Shown here one piece after another: positions 6,536 through 18,428 of a DNA stretch of 64,000 bases. A program made the translations under genes and the position numbers. This DNA is from a virus. Within the stretch, counting starts at the first letter, position 1. Each line of letters begins with the position of its first letter. The notes below the pieces were generated by a model. That model was not told the DNA's origin and made no database searches. It saw only the letters and a program-made list of their open reading frames with translations. Location of the stretch: positions 32,001 to 96,000 of IMG/VR virus record IMGVR_UViG_3300042261_000762; one strand, written 5' to 3'.

Positions 6536-7558
6536 ATGAGAGTGCTTTTTGTCTTGAAAGACAGATTTTACAACAAAACACATTCAAAGTCTTACGGTCT
6601 AATAAATTCATCAAAACAAGTAGCAGATTATTTGGAGACTATTGGATATACTTGTAAAGTTGTCCAGGTCATTGATGCGAATTATATAGATAGAGAGATA
6701 TTTGAGTTCAGACCAGATATAGTTATTATAGAAGCTTTATGGGTATCTGGAGCAAAAATGAAAGAGCTTATAGAAATAAAAAGGTATAAACATATTAAAT
6801 GGATAGTTAGAATTCATAGTAATATCGGATTTTTGAGTGCAGAAACATTAGCCTTAAAATATGTTAATGATTATATTGAACTTCAAAAAGAGAATTTATT
6901 TGTGTCTTGTAATAATCTAGAATTTAATAATAATTTATCTAAAGCAATGAATTATGAATTTGTATATCTACCAAATATTATTGATATTCATTTTCATGAA
7001 CCAGATAAGGAATATACAAATTATATTGATATAGGATGTTTTGGTTCTTTAAGAATTCTTAAAAATCAATGTTATCAAGCTATGTGTGCTATGGAGGCTG
7101 CAGATAGAATGAGAAAAAGACTTAGGTTTCATGTTACTGTAGATGTTGATATAGATCAAAAGAGTGTAGTAAATCCAGTGCTTAAGAATCTAGAAGAATT
7201 ATTTAAGAATAGTCAACACGAATTAGTTAAACACATGTGGTTAGAACAAGCAGAATTTCATCATCTCATTAAAGAAATGCATTTAGGATTACAAGATTCT
7301 TACACAGAAAGTTTTAATATAGTAACTTCAGATTTTGTCAATGAGGGTGTTCCAATAATAGTAAGTCCTTCTATAACATGGATGCCTTGGTTTTTTAAGA
7401 CATCTACTGTACATTTTCATAGAACAGTAAGAAAAATTATTTGGGTATATAGATTGAGAAAAAGTAGAATATTAAGATGGTGGAGTAGAAGAAATCTTTT
7501 AGCATATAACGGTTCCGCTAAAATGAAATGGAGATTTTTCTTACATAAATTCGATTAA
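6536..7558 (+). CDS. Glycosyltransferase-like protein (GT-B fold)
   Basis: PDIVIIEA, IGCFGSLRILKN, SYTESFNIVTSDFVNEGVPIIVS resemble GT4 donor-binding motifs. Confidence 0.65.
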   Translation: MRVLFVLKDRFYNKTHSKSYGLINSSKQVADYLETIGYTCKVVQVIDANYIDREIFEFRPDIVIIEALWVSGAKMKELIEIKRYKHIKWIVRIHSNIGFLSAETLALKYVNDYIELQKENLFVSCNNLEFNNNLSKAMNYEFVYLPNIIDIHFHEPDKEYTNYIDIGCFGSLRILKNQCYQAMCAMEAADRMRKRLRFHVTVDVDIDQKSVVNPVLKNLEELFKNSQHELVKHMWLEQAEFHHLIKEMHLGLQDSYTESFNIVTSDFVNEGVPIIVSPSITWMPWFFKTSTVHFHRTVRKIIWVYRLRKSRILRWWSRRNLLAYNGSAKMKWRFFLHKFD

Positions 7559-12047: not shown

Positions 12048-13082
12048 ATGATTAAATTATTTGATAATTTCATTAATGAACAATACGAATTAGATCCTTA
12101 CGGTGAAGAAAATTTGGATGATAATGTTAAAGTTAGAATTGCCAAATGTAAAAAAGATTTCAAAATAGGGCGTGATAAGGTAGTGCTGTTTCATAAAGGG
12201 GATGAATATGAAATAGTAGATGATCACGATTGGGACGGATTTATGATTCTCAAAACTCAAATACATGGAACTCCACATAATCACGCAATACCATTAAATA
12301 ACATGTATAAAGATTCTTTTTGGAAACATTTTATTATTAAAGAAAATATTAAATCTGATGTAGATCCTTATGGTGAAGAAAATTGGAATGATTTGGAGCC
12401 AGTTGATGATGTAGTTCTAAGATTTCGAAATTATTATAAATGTGTTGAATGTGGCAATGAATGGGAAGATGAATGGGATTCTACTTGCGATGATGAATGT
12501 CCAAATTGTGGCACTATAATGACGCCATATGAAAGCGAAGATATAAATGAATCTTTTACAGAGGATGATCCTTATGGTGAAGAAATATGGAATGACATTA
12601 AACCGGATCCAATAAATAGAGATACTGAAATAGAAATTGGTGATAAGATATATTATCATTACGATAGAAATAATATCGAACCAGCATTCATGGGTGAAGT
12701 TGAAAGAATAATTAATCACCCTAAGTTTGGATTTGTTGATTATTTAATATCTGGAAAATATTCTCGAGAAATCAGTAAAATGAATTTGATTGGATGTGGG
12801 GCTAGAATAATAAAAAGGACAAATGAGACAATAAATATTGATCCTTATAATGAAGAAAATTGGAAAGATGAAGAGGAATTTAATATTGGTGATGAATTAA
12901 TTTGTAAAGAAGATATAATGACATCTACTGGCAAATATTGGCTGTTTCATCAAGGAAAAACGTATAGTATAATTAGAGTTACACATGATTGGATATTCGT
13001 TCTCACGAAATCTTTAGGACACGAAGTTAATATTCCTTTCACAAGAAAGGGCATTTGGAAAAGTTTCGATAAAAAAAATTAA
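12048..13082 (+). CDS. Modular polyprotein with four DPYGEE tags (small beta modules and a Zn ribbon)
   Basis: Leader MIKLFDNFINE; four DPY(G/N)EE motifs each preceded by an xNE/IKE junction; CVECG...CPNCG module. Confidence 0.7.
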   Translation: MIKLFDNFINEQYELDPYGEENLDDNVKVRIAKCKKDFKIGRDKVVLFHKGDEYEIVDDHDWDGFMILKTQIHGTPHNHAIPLNNMYKDSFWKHFIIKENIKSDVDPYGEENWNDLEPVDDVVLRFRNYYKCVECGNEWEDEWDSTCDDECPNCGTIMTPYESEDINESFTEDDPYGEEIWNDIKPDPINRDTEIEIGDKIYYHYDRNNIEPAFMGEVERIINHPKFGFVDYLISGKYSREISKMNLIGCGARIIKRTNETINIDPYNEENWKDEEEFNIGDELICKEDIMTSTGKYWLFHQGKTYSIIRVTHDWIFVLTKSLGHEVNIPFTRKGIWKSFDKKN

Positions 13083-13121
13083 AAAGTTTTTTATTTCACA
13101 GATATTTCATATCTTTGTAGT

Positions 13122-13355
13122 ATGAAAATTAAGTACTACGGATACGATTGTATTTTTCTTCCAACTGGACATATAGGGAAGATTATGAATGAATTGGATT
13201 CATTCAAATCTTTATGCTGGGACCCGAATAAGAAAGAATCTTATTACAAAGAATATCCTCCTCAATGGGGTATTTATTGGTATGGTGGAGATCAAATACG
13301 ACAAAAAGGAATGCCAAATTATTGGCAAGATAAAGATTTAATTCAGATATTATGA
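13122..13355 (+). CDS. Hypothetical protein
   Basis: 77-aa ORF immediately after a TATCTTTG promoter box. Confidence 0.55.
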   Translation: MKIKYYGYDCIFLPTGHIGKIMNELDSFKSLCWDPNKKESYYKEYPPQWGIYWYGGDQIRQKGMPNYWQDKDLIQIL

Positions 13356-13671
13356 AATCAAATGCTCAGAGATTAGGTGTGTTTTTATCAATTTTAACAA
13401 TAATTGTATGTGGAATTATTGGTGGAATGTTATGGTGCAAGATTTTTAGATTTTTGTAAAGGACACCCATATTGGATTTCTTCATGGATTTTGATTCTTC
13501 TTATTTTTGTAAATCCAGAAACATCTTATGATTTTTATAAAAAAATCAGTTATTTTTTTAGAATAATTTTTTAATTAAGCAAACTTTTTGTAATTTTGTA
13601 GTACAAATTAAGAAATGGAAAAAATTGACATTTTTTGGTTAATATATAACAAAGTATAAAAATTAAATATT

Positions 13672-13752
13672 ATGAACTTTCGAATAGAGAATATGATACA
13701 AGAACAGATGCAACAGATGGATAATCTGATTGGATGGACTATATCGTATTGA
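13672..13752 (+). CDS. Leader peptide (26 aa) of a putative tRNA-operon attenuator, absent from ORF track
   Basis: MNFRIENMIQEQMQQMDNLIGWTISY*. Codons 5-16 read ATA GAG AAT ATG ATA CAA GAA CAG ATG CAA CAG ATG. Confidence 0.75.
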   Translation: MNFRIENMIQEQMQQMDNLIGWTISY

Positions 13753-13806
13753 CAAAGTTCTAGATGATATAAACAAAACCCAATCAGAAAACTGATTGGG
13801 TTTTTT
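13725..13806 (+). promoter_or_regulatory. Attenuator: mutually exclusive antiterminator and terminator hairpins
   Basis: Terminator AAAACCCAATCAG-AAAA-CTGATTGGGTTTT plus U-tract (13775-13806). TCTGATTGG (13725-13733) inside the leader ORF is complementary to CCAATCAGA (13780-13788). Inner stem TATATCGT/ATGATATA. Confidence 0.75.
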
Positions 13807-13820
13807 GTTTTTTGACATAT

Positions 13821-13891
13821 GCTCCTATCGTCTAAAGGAAGGATTCGACTTTTTCACAGTCGGGATGCGGTCTCGGGATCCGCTGGGAGTA
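13821..13891 (+). tRNA. tRNA-Glu(TTC), non-canonical T-arm, no encoded CCA
   Basis: Acceptor GCTCCTA/TGGGAGT; anticodon arm CGACT-TTTTCAC-AGTCG; T-arm GCGGT-CTCGGGA-TCCGC lacks TTCGA. Confidence 0.75.
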
Positions 13892-13901
13892 CAAAAGATT
13901 A

Positions 13902-13918
13902 AGTTCTTTGACATATTG
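13902..13918 (+). promoter_or_regulatory. BoxA-like antitermination element
   Basis: AGTTCTTTGACATATTG; related copy AGTTCATTGAATTATTG at 15691-15707; resembles the rrn boxA-type sequence. Confidence 0.5.
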
Positions 13919-13930
13919 GGAATAAATTAT

Positions 13931-14055
13931 AGGGAGGTAGTGTAATGGCTAGCACGACGTAATTCAACAAAAGTATTTTGACAAAAATATTTACAGCAAA
14001 TCAAAAGAAGAGGCATCATAAGCCGTATGTGGATGTTCGAATCATCCCCTCCCAA
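13931..14055 (+). tRNA. tRNA(CAT) interrupted by a 53-nt insertion in the anticodon stem
   Basis: GGGAGG/CCTCCC acceptor with A1:A72; D-arm GTGT/GCAC; ACG[53 nt, 13960-14012]GC-ATCATAA-GCCGT; T-arm GGATG-TTCGAAT-CATCC. Confidence 0.7.
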
Positions 14056-14136
14056 CAAATTGAGAAATGGACTCATCATTCCGAATTTAAACGGTCACAA
14101 AAAATTCCATTGACAGTCTGGAAAGACAGACGACAT

Positions 14137-14218
14137 AGCAACGTGCCGGAGTGGTCTATCGGGGATGTCTCATAAGCATCTGGCTTTGCCTTCGTGGGTT
14201 CAAACCCCACCGTTGCTA
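14137..14218 (+). tRNA. tRNA(CAT) with long (class II) variable arm
   Basis: AGCAACG/CGTTGCT; GATGT-CTCATAA-GCATC; variable arm TGGC-TTT-GCCTTC; GTGGG-TTCAAAC-CCCAC. Confidence 0.85.
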
Positions 14219-14223
14219 CACAT

Positions 14224-14306
14224 CGCGGGGTCGAGTAGATGGCCCAGCTATCTGGTCTCCAGGTCTCCCCAAAAGGGAGTCGTAGGTTCGAATCCTACCC
14301 CCGCTA
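14224..14306 (+). tRNA. Initiator-like tRNA mimic or pseudo-tRNA lacking a normal anticodon loop
   Basis: fMet-type acceptor CGCGGGG/CCCCGCT; intact T-arm GTAGG-TTCGAAT-CCTAC; anticodon arm reduced to TCTGG-TCT-CCAGG; extra arm CTCCC-CAAAA-GGGAG. Confidence 0.6.
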
Positions 14307-14320
14307 CTAAAAACAAACAT

Positions 14321-14396
14321 GGCCTCCTAGTGTAATGGTTGAGCATTTCTCCCTTTGAAGGAGCGGGTATTGGTTCGAATCCAGTGGGGGCTGCCA
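14321..14396 (+). tRNA. tRNA-Gln(TTG), CCA encoded
   Basis: GGCCTCC/GGGGGCT; CTCC-CTTTGAA-GGAG; ATTGG-TTCGAAT-CCAGT; ends GCCA. Confidence 0.88.
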
Positions 14397-14399
14397 AAT

Positions 14400-14470
14400 T
14401 GTTCTTTGGTGTAACGGGAGCATAAGTGACTCTGAATCACTCAGTCCTGGTTCGAATCCAGGAAGAACAA
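14400..14470 (+). tRNA. tRNA-Gln(CTG)
   Basis: TGTTCTT/AAGAACA; AGTGA-CTCTGAA-TCACT; CCTGG-TTCGAAT-CCAGG. Confidence 0.93.
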
Positions 14471-14493
14471 CAACAAAAATAGGAGATAAAAAT

Positions 14494-14751
14494 ATGAAAG
14501 GTATTACATTTAAAATCAACGGAGAACTTTCAGAAGAAGGTAAAAAGAAACTTCTGAAACACATTGAGGAAGGTAGAAAAAAAATGGAAGCCAGAATTGA
14601 AAAGTATAGAAAATACTTCGATCTTTTAGAAAAAATGAATAAAGATAATAGACACGAAGACTTCATTTATTTAGAGAATGGTAAACATTATATAGTATCT
14701 TGGGACAGTGGGAAATGGTCAGATCCGAGAGAAATTACATTTTTGGAATAA
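14494..14751 (+). CDS. Hypothetical protein within tRNA cluster
   Basis: 85-aa ORF with AGGAG upstream. Confidence 0.55.
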   Translation: MKGITFKINGELSEEGKKKLLKHIEEGRKKMEARIEKYRKYFDLLEKMNKDNRHEDFIYLENGKHYIVSWDSGKWSDPREITFLE

Positions 14752-15020
14752 ACTTAAAAAACGAACCTCGAACTTTTTATACATTAGAAACACATTGTAG
14801 AGGAAATCTAATAATTGAAAGAATAGAAGAAAAAATAAAACAAAAACAAAAGAACTTCATACATGGTTTTATGTTAAGAAGGAAAGTAGAGAGACCAACT
14901 TATGAAAAACTAATTGACGAGATAGAAAATCTTGGACTAGAGGGAGTTGGTAGAAAATATGGAGTAACTGGTAAAGCGATTAAAAAATGGGTTATTACAT
15001 ATCAAAAATATAATATATAA
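14750..15020 (+). pseudogene. Remnant C-terminus of a homing-endonuclease-type HTH protein
   Basis: RRKVERPTYEKLIDEIENLGLEGVGRKYGVTGKAIKKW resembles HTH tails of phage HNH endonucleases; no good start codon or nuclease core. Confidence 0.5.
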
Positions 15021-15025
15021 TGTAT

Positions 15026-15101
15026 TGATCATTAGCGCAATTGGTAGAGCGTTGGGTTTTGGTCCCAAAGGTTGGAGGTTCGAACCCTCCATGATCAACC
15101 A
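15026..15101 (+). tRNA. tRNA-Gln(TTG), CCA encoded
   Basis: TGATCAT/ATGATCA; TTGGG-TTTTGGT-CCCAA; GGAGG-TTCGAAC-CCTCC; ends ACCA. Confidence 0.88.
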
Positions 15102-15113
15102 AAGTTTTTTATT

Positions 15114-15635
15114 ATGAAGAAATTATTTACTATATTATTCATTATTATATCATTCTGTCTAAACGCCCAAACAAAGGGAACTTTCACAGATAATCGTGAC
15201 AATAAAACCTACAGATGGATAAAAATAGGCGAACAAGTTTGGATGAGGGATAATCTAAAATATAAAGATACAATATTTTATGATTATAAATCTGAAAAAA
15301 AGAATGATACATTAAAACTAGTTGCTTCTTGTCCAGATGGATGGCATCTACCAACACTAATAGAATGGAATCAATTGTTTACTACTCTTGGAAGAGTAAA
15401 TGCTGCTAATAGATTGCAAGAAGAAAATAGTTTTGATTGTTTATTGAATGGTAGATATAATGCTGATATAAAATCAGTTGAAAATAGAGGAACACATGCA
15501 TATTACTGGACTTCGACTGTTAGAGATGAAAATACAATGTGGACAATATTTATATTTTATGGTTCTGGAATGACAAGTAAAATAGATGGTGATAAGAGAT
15601 ATGGTTATTCTATAAGATGTATAAAAGATAAATAA
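15114..15635 (+). CDS. Secreted FISUMP-domain protein
   Basis: Signal peptide MKKLFTILFIIISFCLNAQ; FTDNRDNKTY, IGEQVWMRDNL, CPDGWHLPT, YYWTST, GYSIRCIKD. True start 15114; the track start overlaps a tRNA. Confidence 0.85.
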   Translation: MKKLFTILFIIISFCLNAQTKGTFTDNRDNKTYRWIKIGEQVWMRDNLKYKDTIFYDYKSEKKNDTLKLVASCPDGWHLPTLIEWNQLFTTLGRVNAANRLQEENSFDCLLNGRYNADIKSVENRGTHAYYWTSTVRDENTMWTIFIFYGSGMTSKIDGDKRYGYSIRCIKDK

Positions 15636-15717
15636 TTTTCCTGAAATTTTTTTAATTCGTAAATAAGTCGTATTTTTGTATTGTTAAATCAGTTCATTGA
15701 ATTATTGAAAAATATAT

Positions 15718-15791
15718 GGCGGGGTAGAGCAGAAGAAGCTCGTCGGGCTCATAATCCGAAGGTCGTGGTTGAGCATTTCCCACCCCCGCAA
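15718..15791 (+). tRNA. tRNA-fMet-like (CAT) with degenerate D and T loops
   Basis: GGCGGGG/CCCCGCA; TCGGG-CTCATAA-TCCGA; T-arm GTGG-TTGAGCATTTC-CCAC; D-loop lacks GG. Confidence 0.65.
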
Positions 15792-15796
15792 CACAT

Positions 15797-15871
15797 CGCG
15801 GGATGGAGCAGAGGTAGCTCGCAAGGCTCATAACCTTGAGGCCGAGGGTTCGATCCCCTCTCCCGCAACCA
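15797..15871 (+). tRNA. tRNA-fMet(CAT), CCA encoded
   Basis: CGCGGGA/TCCCGCA (C1:A72); CAAGG-CTCATAA-CCTTG; GAGGG-TTCGATC-CCCTC; ends ACCA. Confidence 0.93.
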
Positions 15872-15874
15872 AAT

Positions 15875-15947
15875 GGTCTCGTAGCTCAGGGGTGAGAGCA
15901 GGAAGCTTATACCTTCAAGGTCGGTGGTTCAATTCCATCCGGGACTA
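15875..15947 (+). tRNA. tRNA-Ile(TAT)
   Basis: GGTCTCG/CGGGACT; GAAG-CTTATAC-CTTC; GGTGG-TTCAATT-CCATC. Confidence 0.88.
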
Positions 15948-15957
15948 CAAATAAAAC

Positions 15958-16031
15958 TGGAGTGTAACTCAGTTGGTTAGAGTTCGAAGCTTATACCTTC
16001 GCGGTCGGGGGTTCAAGTCCCTCCACTCCAA
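15958..16031 (+). tRNA. tRNA-Ile(TAT), second copy
   Basis: TGGAGTG/CACTCCA; CGAAG-CTTATAC-CTTCG; GGGGG-TTCAAGT-CCCTC. Confidence 0.9.
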
Positions 16032-16035
16032 CAAT

Positions 16036-16155
16036 AGATAGTAAACCAGCTTCCCTATTCGCGACGGTGCCTATCCTACAAGGCCGGAACCATTAGCACC
16101 CGAGGGAACAATTAAGGTGGGAAGGGCGAGTCTCCCAATCTAACTGGAACTATCT
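16036..16155 (+). ncRNA. Unidentified structured RNA (about 120 nt)
   Basis: GC-rich island with nested stems AGATAGT/ACTATCT, CCAG/CTGG, TTCCCT/AGGGAA and GGTGC/GCACC, directly after tRNA-Ile. Confidence 0.55.
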
Positions 16156-16191
16156 TAAATTTTAATAAATAAATCAAAAAAACAACTAAAT

Positions 16192-16416
16192 ATGAAGATT
16201 CTCAGAAAAGGTGACGATTTCGTCAAAATGAATGACGCTACTGTTCAGGACATTGCGAAAATTGAAGATAAGATTAAAGATGGTTGGAAGTATTCTCCAA
16301 AGAAAGATTACAAGGATTTTTATAAAGCCGAAAAGACAGCGACAGAAGTAAAGACCGAAGAGAAGAAAGAGAAGAAGGCAAAGGAAAAGAAAGAAAAAAA
16401 TAAGAATAAAAAATAA
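16192..16416 (+). CDS. Small basic hypothetical protein
   Basis: 74 aa with Lys/Glu-rich tail. Confidence 0.6.
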   Translation: MKILRKGDDFVKMNDATVQDIAKIEDKIKDGWKYSPKKDYKDFYKAEKTATEVKTEEKKEKKAKEKKEKNKNKK

Positions 16417-16437
16417 TATATATCCATAAAAATTATT

Positions 16438-16983
16438 ATGTATAAGATAATTGTAAAAGGACCAGCTGGCGAATCAAATGTTTCTGATAGAAAAAAATTA
16501 GACGGCATTGATTGTCAGGACGAATTCTCTGAATATTTTCATGAAGCTTGGAATATAGGGGGAAAAGAAGATAGAAATCAGCAGAATTTGATTGATAAAG
16601 GAGTATCCGGTGGTTATATGAGGTTCGAATATGAACACAATAAACTATACGTAATAGTTGAGTATAATTCCGATGAAAAATTAAACGATGATGAAATCGA
16701 AGAGTTGAAAGACTACACCCAAGGTCAACTTTCCGACGGTATTGGTGAGGGATTTGAACAACAACCAGTCATGTATGAGAACGATAAAGAAATTTTTATA
16801 TCTCCCTGGTTTAGAGGACAAAAACTAAAAGTTGAACAAATTGAAGATGATACAATTGAACCAAAAAAGAAAGTCGCTGAAGATGATAATACATATTGGG
16901 AAGACCAATGTAAAAAAGATATAGAAAAAATGAACGCTTTAATGGACGAATTAAAAAAACTCCTCGATAAAGATAAAAAATAA
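16438..16983 (+). CDS. Hypothetical protein (GQxSDGxGEGFEQ motif)
   Basis: 181-aa ORF containing GQLSDGIGEGFEQ; function unknown. Confidence 0.6.
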   Translation: MYKIIVKGPAGESNVSDRKKLDGIDCQDEFSEYFHEAWNIGGKEDRNQQNLIDKGVSGGYMRFEYEHNKLYVIVEYNSDEKLNDDEIEELKDYTQGQLSDGIGEGFEQQPVMYENDKEIFISPWFRGQKLKVEQIEDDTIEPKKKVAEDDNTYWEDQCKKDIEKMNALMDELKKLLDKDKK

Positions 16984-16989
16984 CTAAAC

Positions 16990-17064
16990 GCTCCTGTCGT
17001 CTAATCGGTTAGGACATCGCCCTTTCACGGCGAAGATTTGCGGGTTCGAGTCCCGTCGGGAGTA
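16990..17064 (+). tRNA. tRNA-Glu(TTC)
   Basis: GCTCCTG/CGGGAGT; TCGCC-CTTTCAC-GGCGA; GCGGG-TTCGAGT-CCCGT. Confidence 0.93.
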
Positions 17065-17076
17065 CAAAAAATTTAC

Positions 17077-17149
17077 CGCCCTATCGACTAACAGGCTAGG
17101 TCACCGCTCTCTCACAGCGGAAATTCGGAATCGTACTCCGATAGGGTGA
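17077..17149 (+). tRNA. tRNA-Glu(CTC)
   Basis: CGCCCTA/TAGGGTG; CCGCT-CTCTCAC-AGCGG; TCGGA-ATCGTAC-TCCGA (atypical T-loop). Confidence 0.82.
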
Positions 17150-17594
17150 CTCCTTTCAATATTAAAGATATAGTAGATTTTGCACATTTAAGTTTTCTTG
17201 CAATATCTATTTTTTTAGACCCATCTTTGTATCTATTTTATCCCACACTTTTTTATCCATAGTTCGTTTTCTTTTGAGTAGATAAAAAAATTGAACTATT
17301 TCTATTTTATAAACAAGTACAATAATGTATAATATATACTATGTAAAAAGAATCAAGTTTTTATGAGAATAATAGCACAATCTTTACTGTTTATACTCAA
17401 CAAGTGGAATTTATCAATGGATGAATTCAATCCTATTGGTAAATTTTTATGGTATATACCAAATTTTCTAAATAACGTTTTAACACAGATTTTTTATTTC
17501 TGTTTATTCCCGTTTGTCTGTTTGTATTTTTATCTACACGAGAAGTCACAACTATACATTTTAATGTATAAGTTATTTTTAATACTTTTGAAAA

Positions 17595-18428
17595 TTAATC
17601 AATAACTCTAATTGGAGCCTGTTTAATGTGGTCTAATTCTGAGAACGGTGGTTTATAAACATGCCATCTTCCTTTTGGATCTAGTAATACTATTTCCTTC
17701 TTACGATCTCCTGGTTCTTTCATTATAACATCAGATACAAGGAATCTATCCTTGAATTTATATCCTCTTCTCATTTCATTTCCAATCCCTTCAGGAGTCA
17801 TTATTATAGTTTTATTTAGAAGTTGATCTTTTACTAATTTTATTATTTGATTATCAGTCATTCTTCCGAAATCCTGTAGAGAAAACGAAACAGTATTATC
17901 TTCTCCTTGTTCTTCCCATTCTTCTTCACCATACGGATCTTCTTCATCGTGATTAGCTTCTTCTTTGCCATCCTCATTTTCTAAGACTCTTAAAAATCTT
18001 CTACATCTAGCCAATCCCTCTTGTTTTTTATGATTTCTAGCTAATTTATCTGGGTTCCTCATTATATTCTCTATAACTACTTTAATATCTTCCGCTAAAT
18101 CCGCGTAGTTATTTTCGGCATACTCTTGAGCCATGTGATCAACTAGGGTTTTAAGATCTTCGTCAGACATTTTATCCATAGCTTTGTTTGTCAAATCATG
18201 CATATTATAAAGAAGACCTAATTTTTTGGATCTTGCTATAAATATATCTAATTCTCTAAAGACTCCTCTCATCGGTTTCGACCAGAAAAATAATGCTTTT
18301 AATACTCCTAATAAAGCATGTGCTTTAGCAAAACTATATTCGAGTTTGACTCTTCTACCAAATCTTTTAACATCTTTCCAATTTAATTCTTCATTTACAA
18401 ACTCATCGTATCCTTTAATATTGTTCAT
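17595..18428 (-). CDS. Hypothetical protein with targeting-like leader and DPYGEEEW tag
   Basis: MNNIKGYDEFVNE leader; internal EDPYGEEEW. Confidence 0.65.
   Translation of the reverse strand: MNNIKGYDEFVNEELNWKDVKRFGRRVKLEYSFAKAHALLGVLKALFFWSKPMRGVFRELDIFIARSKKLGLLYNMHDLTNKAMDKMSDEDLKTLVDHMAQEYAENNYADLAEDIKVVIENIMRNPDKLARNHKKQEGLARCRRFLRVLENEDGKEEANHDEEDPYGEEEWEEQGEDNTVSFSLQDFGRMTDNQIIKLVKDQLLNKTIIMTPEGIGNEMRRGYKFKDRFLVSDVIMKEPGDRKKEIVLLDPKGRWHVYKPPFSELDHIKQAPIRVID

Follow-up and report, generated by a model that had tools for sequence, protein, structure and literature searches.

A 64,000-nucleotide (nt) stretch of phage DNA, here called the window, carries an element directly ahead of a cluster of transfer RNA (tRNA) genes that we consider quite likely to be a ribosome-mediated leader-peptide transcription attenuator gating the tRNA operon. 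The contig to which it belongs carries at least four such elements. The window covers positions 32001-96000 of a 104-kb contig with a G+C content of 30% (IMG/VR record IMGVR_UViG_3300042261_000762) from an uncultured lake phage. We refer to the window element as element D and to its paralogs, which are given in genome coordinates, as elements A, B, and C (Table 1). Sequence analysis reveals the parts of these elements, their geometry, their conservation, and the match between each leader and the cluster behind it. Leader-peptide attenuation is the textbook control for amino-acid operons, and a first-pass annotation of the window had proposed an attenuator of the trp/his type at this locus; the paralogs, the orthologs, a permutation test, and the boundary found in predicted folds all support that interpretation.

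Element D is built around a short open reading frame (ORF; 13672-13752) placed between a promoter box at 13613-13649 and the first tRNA gene at 13821. Codons 5-16 of this leader form the regulatory run (ATA GAG AAT ATG ATA CAA GAA CAG ATG CAA CAG ATG). Further along the ORF lies region 2, the antiterminator strand (TCTGATTGG), which is perfectly complementary over 9 bp to CCAATCAGA (13780-13788) in the 5' arm of the intrinsic terminator that follows. The terminator stem (13775-13787/13792-13804) comprises 13 bp with a 4-nt loop and is followed by a T-tract that extends to 13813; the G closing the first T run stands 15 nt before the tRNA-Glu gene. The pairing of regions 1 and 2 corresponds to the classical 1:2 hairpin of attenuators. 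The structural elements listed in the first-pass annotation are therefore all present: a 26-codon ORF between promoter boxes and a strong terminator, a terminator about 15 nt ahead of the first tRNA, and a segment able to sequester the 5' arm of that terminator.

The promoter boxes, too, are real recurrent motifs, and they fall into two classes. The upstream, host-type box, TAATTTTG, fits the Bacteroidota -7 consensus, TAnnTTTG, and the block around it (AAGCAAACTTTT.GTAATTTTGT.GTA) has a second copy upstream of paralog C. The phage-type class has the form TGACATTTTT-N8-ATATATAA, and related copies of it occur upstream of ordinary genes. Leaders C and D carry both classes in tandem. A mini-ORF within the phage-type box at 13613-13649 (MEKID..) was considered as a gene and rejected; since its ATG is lost in the orthologs from the related phage LR756501, the box is a motif at the DNA level rather than an ORF.

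The codon content of the window leader departs strongly from chance. Six codons, ATA, GAG, GAA, ATG, CAA, and CAG, account for 11 of the 12 codons in the regulatory run, whereas they make up 17.2% of the codons in the contig's long ORFs; the binomial probability of at least 11 sensing codons is about 4e-8 per 12-codon stretch. The contig has 658 ORFs that start with ATG and span 15-45 codons; of these, the window leader alone reached 11/12. This agrees with the earlier claim that 11 of these codons match the six anticodon types downstream. The same annotation had described G-ending codons as disfavoured, and they are indeed rare in the contig's long ORFs (per thousand, CAG 4.3 vs. CAA 22.1 and GAG 10.2 vs. 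GAA 66.9).

The contig encodes 40 tRNAs in four plus-strand clusters sorted by amino acid, and each of the three other clusters is likewise headed by a promoter box, a leader ORF, an antiterminator, and a terminator. Leader A (MTYTSKHSKHSSFSSKWFTTF..), written in S, K, H, F, and W, precedes tRNAs for Trp, His (two), Phe (two), Lys (five), and Ser (CGA), together with a trpS-like (TrpRS-like) ORF. Leader B (MNNILHNNLLNLLLLLG..) contains ten Leu codons of five types; behind it come tRNA-Leu genes with anticodons GAG, TAG, CAA, TAA, and TAG, then a leucyl-tRNA synthetase gene (LeuRS; TIGR00396, 570 bits), and then another tRNA-Leu-TAA. Leader C (MKNMVYNINDCIYNDK..), composed of V, Y, N, I, D, C, and K, heads a cluster with an L7/L12 gene and tRNAs for Ile (GAT, two), Cys, Asp (two), Asn (two), Lys (CTT), Tyr, and Val (AAC). 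In the best 12-codon window, the number of cognate codons is 7 for A, 8 for B, 12 for C, and 11 for D, compared with 1-6 when a leader is set against the wrong cluster. Among the 658 short ORFs, the counts of C and D are reached by their own leaders only, and one other ORF equals the count of B. Ile is encoded by ATT in the regulatory run of leader C, whose cluster has tRNA-Ile-GAT, and by ATA in that of the window leader, whose cluster has tRNA-Ile-TAT.

The closest public relative of the phage is LR756501, a 735-kb "uncultured phage" with about 74-84% DNA identity that is placed in the Mahaphage clade, whose predicted hosts are Bacteroidetes (PMC7162821). It has orthologs of all four units. 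The ORFs of A, C, and D have the same length in both phages, the B ortholog is three codons shorter, and the segment from region 2 to the terminator is nearly invariant. The regulatory runs, in turn, keep their composition while the order of their residues is shuffled, from SKHSKHSSFSSKWF to SKHSKHFSSSSKWF in A and from VYNINDCIYNDK to VRKYNDYCINDK in C. In the B ortholog, seven Leu positions are enough to include all six Leu codons (P = 0.003). Retained composition with shuffled order would be expected if selection acted on codon content, but not if it acted on the peptide. It thus speaks against the possibility that the short ORFs encode functional micropeptides and that the terminator merely ends their transcripts. 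Conservation of ORF length at this level of DNA identity would fit such peptides, yet their residues are permuted, the peptides of the four paralogs resemble one another only over the stretch that encodes region 2, and their amino-acid sets follow the downstream tRNAs; we regard this explanation as very improbable.

Leaders of this kind also occur in unrelated IMG/VR contigs. A single scan of IMG/VR with the terminator arm as the query, whose matches lie in contigs with about 29-32% G+C, brought six more distinct leaders, each preceding a tRNA cluster. One (..NLYNIDLYLDMDD..) precedes Tyr, Leu, Met, Asp, and Arg tRNAs; another (..GIAIIGGGAGA..) precedes Ala and Gly tRNAs; and a third (..MEAMLWSVAEAVEVDDL..) precedes Ala, Glu, Leu, Val, Trp, Asp, and Met tRNAs. 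When leaders were permuted against clusters across the ten elements, 0 of 200,000 permutations equaled the observed match, at the codon and at the amino-acid level alike, and the diagonal of the match matrix was the row maximum in 8 of the 10 elements. Short ORF plus terminator elements ahead of tRNA clusters outside this contig, a search for which the first-pass annotation had named as a check on its proposal, are thus present both in LR756501 and in IMG/VR. Two near-identical IMG/VR contigs, L022 and L016, differ by a deletion of about 38 nt in the leader that shortens the ORF to 12 codons without touching the terminator; either natural variation of the attenuator or a difference in assembly may account for it.

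These results also bear on what the leaders would sense. A translated attenuator could respond to general translation capacity or amino-acid starvation rather than to specific tRNAs, so that any slowdown would open the operon and the composition match would reflect common ancestry or codon preferences particular to each cluster region. Such a sensor would be consistent with the fact that stalling does not let a ribosome distinguish a missing tRNA from an uncharged one, with the presence of aminoacyl-tRNA synthetase genes in clusters A and B, and with the weak match at the level of synonymous codons described below. However, general sensing has no need for four leaders with almost non-overlapping amino-acid sets, each ahead of the matching cluster, or for a composition that is retained while its order is shuffled. 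We therefore consider a general sensor improbable, although it is the strongest of the competing explanations.

The geometry of the elements would suit a switch. In every element, region 2 is complementary to the terminator arm of that same element, with five or more distinct sequence pairs covarying in this way. The distance from the ATG to region 2 is 51-68 nt in all but one of the nine elements in which region 2 was correctly located; element L012 was read by eye. We modeled cotranscriptional folds in which the 3' arm of the terminator had not yet been made and a 30-nt ribosome footprint was masked. The antiterminator formed in these folds with the A site at codons up to 14-16 and was blocked when the ribosome was further on. 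In all four leaders, the switch boundary (codons 15-17) coincided with the end of the regulatory run.

In the mechanism we propose for element D, transcription would begin at the promoter box or boxes at 13591-13649, and the 26-codon leader would be translated while RNA polymerase heads for the terminator. With plentiful Ile-AUA, Glu, Gln, and Met aminoacyl-tRNAs, the ribosome would pass codon 16 and cover region 2 as region 3 emerges; the 13-bp terminator would then form, and transcription would end before tRNA-Glu. Scarcity of any cognate tRNA would stall the ribosome within codons 5-15, with region 1 melted and region 2 free. Free region 2 would pair with region 3 (13780-13788), the terminator would not form, and polymerase would read into the Glu, Met, Gln, and Ile tRNA genes. 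Since the product of the operon would relieve the stall, the outcome would be a demand-driven feedback loop on tRNA supply. We infer leader translation, termination, ribosome/polymerase coupling, and the physiological trigger from the sequence.

Another explanation is that the hairpin serves as a constitutive terminator or insulator of the ordinary kind, that the ORF is an untranslated chance match, and that the tRNAs have their own downstream promoters. The internal promoter at 15652-15678 and the dominance of the terminator at equilibrium, both described below, would suit it. Yet a conserved promoter box separates the upstream gene from the leader, the T-tract is just 15 nt from the first tRNA, and the reading frame and stop position are conserved; moreover, chance cannot account for the paralogs, the orthologs, or the result of the permutation test. 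This explanation appears to us highly unlikely, though slightly less so than the micropeptide one.

Several observations weigh against attenuation, or against parts of the mechanism. No Shine-Dalgarno sequence is present. In the LR756501 ortholog of the window leader, a GAG and an ATG codon are replaced by the noncognate ATT. Equilibrium folds of elements C and D with the ribosome masked and the whole terminator present always favored the terminator; this requires a kinetic switch like that of trp. The ribosome-free truncated transcript is divided about evenly between the two states (0.49). The stop codon of the window leader lies 17 nt beyond region 2, and a ribosome waiting there would leave region 2 unmasked (P = 0.61), so that default termination would rely on timing or on re-pairing of regions 1 and 2; this geometry caveat applies to elements A and D. 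The first-pass annotation had claimed an exact match between leader codons and tRNAs, and this stands for amino acids but not for synonymous codons across elements: 22 of 48 informative codons in the ten elements matched, against 17.7 expected (P = 0.10, not significant), in part because the tRNA lists are incomplete. Tests on single leaders were likewise weak (P = 0.13 for CAG, 0.25 for GAG, and 0.20 for Leu codon diversity), apart from that on the LR756501 Leu leader, and synonymous-codon matching beyond the amino-acid level is no more than suggestive. An internal host-type promoter at 15652-15678, as suspected earlier from a box at 15671, has a twin in cluster B (genome 26970-27005) preceding tRNA-Leu-TAA; it may drive the six distal tRNAs independently of the attenuator. 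Finally, the support for attenuation comes from sequence analysis, a search for sequencing runs containing 13580-14480 having listed no RNA run, and we assume that transcription and translation are coupled in the presumed Bacteroidota host.

The elements resemble the multivalent enterobacterial attenuators thrL (Thr, Ile), ilvL (Ile, Leu, Val), leuL, hisL, and trpL in having a short leader ORF with successive regulatory codons; leader B, in which five Leu codons follow one another, closely resembles leuL. As in those systems, the last part of the ORF contains region 2, which can pair with the 5' arm of an intrinsic terminator, so that ribosome position would decide the outcome. Every structural hallmark of leader-peptide attenuators is present, whereas the downstream genes fall outside the classical scope of biosynthesis and transport: enterobacterial attenuators regulate biosynthetic enzymes and feed back on amino-acid synthesis, while the elements described here precede tRNAs (along with LeuRS, a TrpRS-like gene, and L7/L12) and would feed back on tRNA supply. 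They also differ in reading up to seven amino acids per leader, in being borne by Bacteroidota-type phages, and in having no sequence or Rfam similarity to enterobacterial leaders; the Rfam leader families (Leu, His, Thr, Trp, and others) gave no match at E <= 1 in 13000-17600. The pheM leader attenuator, which controls the pheST (PheRS) operon of Escherichia coli, is another parallel in that a leader peptide governs part of the translation apparatus rather than a biosynthetic enzyme, and cluster B likewise includes LeuRS. However, pheST encodes a synthetase only, while our elements precede tRNA genes, and we know of no tRNA gene behind a pheM-type leader.

A further point of comparison is the T-box, which also senses tRNA status and controls terminator readthrough upstream of translation-related genes. 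T-boxes act without a ribosome, through direct binding of uncharged tRNA, and a translation-independent switch of this sort, with uncharged tRNAs binding the codon-like run, could be imagined here since tRNAs and synthetases are usual T-box territory. Rfam, however, gave no T-box or other riboswitch match at the window element, specifier-loop and T-box-sequence architecture is absent, and the run comprises at least 12 codons, which specify up to seven amino acids and belong to a single conserved frame bounded by start and stop codons. Of all the explanations considered, we give this one the least credence. The first-pass annotation knew of no ribosome-mediated attenuator for a phage tRNA operon, and in keeping with this, neither a full-text literature search nor the huge-phage paper (PMC7162821) yielded a description of leader-peptide control of tRNA genes. 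The literature search also found nothing for "Bacteroid-trp."

Table 1. Features of the window element and its tRNA cluster (window coordinates) and of the three paralogous elements (genome coordinates).
Feature	Position	Strand	Basis or remarks
Host-type promoter box TAATTTTG	13591..13598	+	Read directly in the sequence
Phage-type promoter box AAATGGAAAAAATTGACATTTTTT..TAATATATAA	13613..13649	+	Recurs at paralogs A, B, and C and at LR756501 orthologs
Leader ORF MNFRIENMIQEQMQQMDNLIGWTISY, 26 codons plus stop	13672..13752	+	Ortholog in LR756501 with same length and stop position, synonymous changes
Regulatory run, codons 5-16	13684..13719	+	11/12 codons read by downstream anticodons
Region 1 CAACAGAT	13711..13718	+	Pairs with region 2 in the ribosome-free fold
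Region 2, antiterminator strand TCTGATTGG, codons 18-21	13725..13733	+	Complementary to 13780-13788 at all 9 nt
Intrinsic terminator, regions 3 and 4 plus T-tract	13775..13813	+	Fold z = -5.45
tRNA-Glu (TTC), first gene predicted to be regulated	13821..13892	+	ARAGORN
boxA-like motif GTTCTTTGACATATTGG	13903..13919	+	Recurrent motif; putative function
tRNA(CAT) interrupted by 52-nt insert 13960-14011	13932..14054	+	Rfam; ARAGORN after removal of the insert; conserved in LR756501
tRNA with CAT anticodon and long variable arm	14137..14219	+	ARAGORN, Rfam
tRNA-like element without anticodon loop	14225..14304	+	Rfam
tRNA-Gln (TTG), tRNA-Gln (CTG)	14321..14471	+	ARAGORN, Rfam
tRNA-Gln (TTG)	15026..15101	+	ARAGORN, Rfam
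Internal host-type promoter TTAATTCG..TATTTTTG, -7 box 15671-15678	15652..15678	+	Near-identical copy ahead of tRNA-Leu-TAA
Initiator-like tRNA(CAT) (15718-15791), tRNA(CAT), tRNA-Ile (TAT) x2	15718..16032	+	ARAGORN, Rfam
tRNA-Glu (TTC), tRNA-Glu (CTC), end of cluster	16990..17150	+	ARAGORN
Element A leader MTYTSKHSKHSSFSSKWFTTFGVETELLCVS	genome 10227-10322		Region 2/terminator arm TTCGGGGTT/AACCCCGAA
Element B leader MNNILHNNLLNLLLLLGIIGLGVLC	genome 24127-24204		Region 2/terminator arm GGATTGGGT/ACCCAATCC
Element C leader MKNMVYNINDCIYNDKRKMLIG	genome 27804-27872		Region 2/terminator arm CTGATTGG/CCAATCAG

Behind the window leader, ARAGORN identified ten tRNAs in 13821-17150: Glu-TTC (two), Glu-CTC, Gln-TTG (two), Gln-CTG, CAT (two), and Ile-TAT (two). 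Rfam brought three further tRNA-like genes, at 15718-15791, 13932-14054, and 14225-14304. According to both programs, the cluster holds the six anticodon types first claimed for it (TTC, CTC, TTG, CTG, CAT, and TAT) and no others; the original tally was right about these types but undercounted the CAT tRNAs. Extra calls made by ARAGORN with intron or relaxed settings were mostly spurious, and only Ser-GGA calls were kept, as a lead: two of them lie in cluster A at the relaxed threshold. The other genes of the window cluster are small ORFs of no assigned function and an ORF with a Fib_succ_major domain.

Some of the tRNA genes are unusual in structure. The 52-nt insert of the interrupted tRNA(CAT) is A/T-rich and lies in the 5' strand of the anticodon stem; once it is excised, ARAGORN calls a canonical tRNA. 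The LR756501 counterpart (L001, about 6641-6775) has a longer insert. A group I intron is unlikely because the insert is too short, and the insertion position is also not canonical. Two type II-shaped tRNAs, with a long variable arm, carry odd anticodons, CAT at 14137-14219 and CCA at L002 10401-10484, and this shape is unusual for Met or Trp tRNAs. The element at 14225-14304 combines an acceptor stem and a T arm with a long extra arm and carries a 3-nt hairpin instead of an anticodon loop; its Rfam match is weak and tRNA-Sec-like (26 bits).

Further features lie in or near the clusters. The LeuRS of cluster B (L003 5099-6658) has 519 amino acids, compared with about 843 positions in the profile, and aligns in three stretches, so the editing domain is probably missing. 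Between the first and second tRNAs of cluster A is an ORF for an HNH nuclease (L002 10567-11115) whose HNH domain is Cas9/IscB-like. G+C-rich and apparently structured stretches occur within tRNA clusters (L002 11160-11585 and 13056-13375; L003 9948-10268 and 10352-10672); they had no match in Rfam, and some contain T-arm-like pieces or unusual Ser-like tRNAs. A peptide motif, DP[YN][GN]EE.W, is repeated within and across otherwise unrelated ORFs (12048-13082, and 17595-18428 on the minus strand), with four copies in the 344-residue ORF immediately upstream of the window leader.

The tRNA clusters also contain a recurrent motif that presumably resembles the rrn boxA antitermination sites. Its core, GTTC[AT]TT[GA]A, occurs 20 times on the plus strand of the contig vs. 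3 times on the minus strand, mostly inside tRNA clusters, and most copies of the longer form, GTTC[AT]TTGA[AC]ATATTG, lie right after attenuator terminators or between tRNAs (window 13903-13919 and 15692-15708; L002 10383, 10488, and 11115; L003 7014, 7936, 8720, 9723, and 10977). In stable-RNA operons, boxA lies downstream of the promoter and is bound by NusB/S10. The likeness to the rrn boxA/Nus system consists in a GTTCTTTGA-type motif placed after a terminator and recurring in tRNA clusters, as in rRNA and tRNA operons. It is a resemblance of motif; if real, such a site would act downstream of the attenuator decision and would not replace the attenuator.

If leader-peptide attenuation operates as proposed, phage tRNA genes would be expressed on demand rather than constitutively, and the phage would probably make each tRNA block only when the matching codons are read slowly. 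The ribosome would serve as the gauge of tRNA supply, with separate channels for each amino-acid group, and the way in which huge phages group their tRNA genes by amino acid would be tied to how the blocks are controlled. Triggers could include codon-usage mismatch, host shut-off, starvation, and anticodon nucleases. One tentative and rather doubtful extension is that the elements are counterdefense sensors, with replacement tRNAs kept silent until anticodon nucleases, tRNA cleavage, or host shut-off deplete particular tRNAs and with the blocks together acting as a self-regulating tRNA homeostat; a stalled ribosome would then turn on only the block replacing the attacked tRNAs, and phage translation would be largely independent of the host. 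More generally, the attenuators would offer compact, codon-programmable sensors of tRNA availability, and they would provide a handle on why large phages carry tRNAs, be it codon-usage compensation, replacement after shut-off, or escape from tRNA-targeting defenses.

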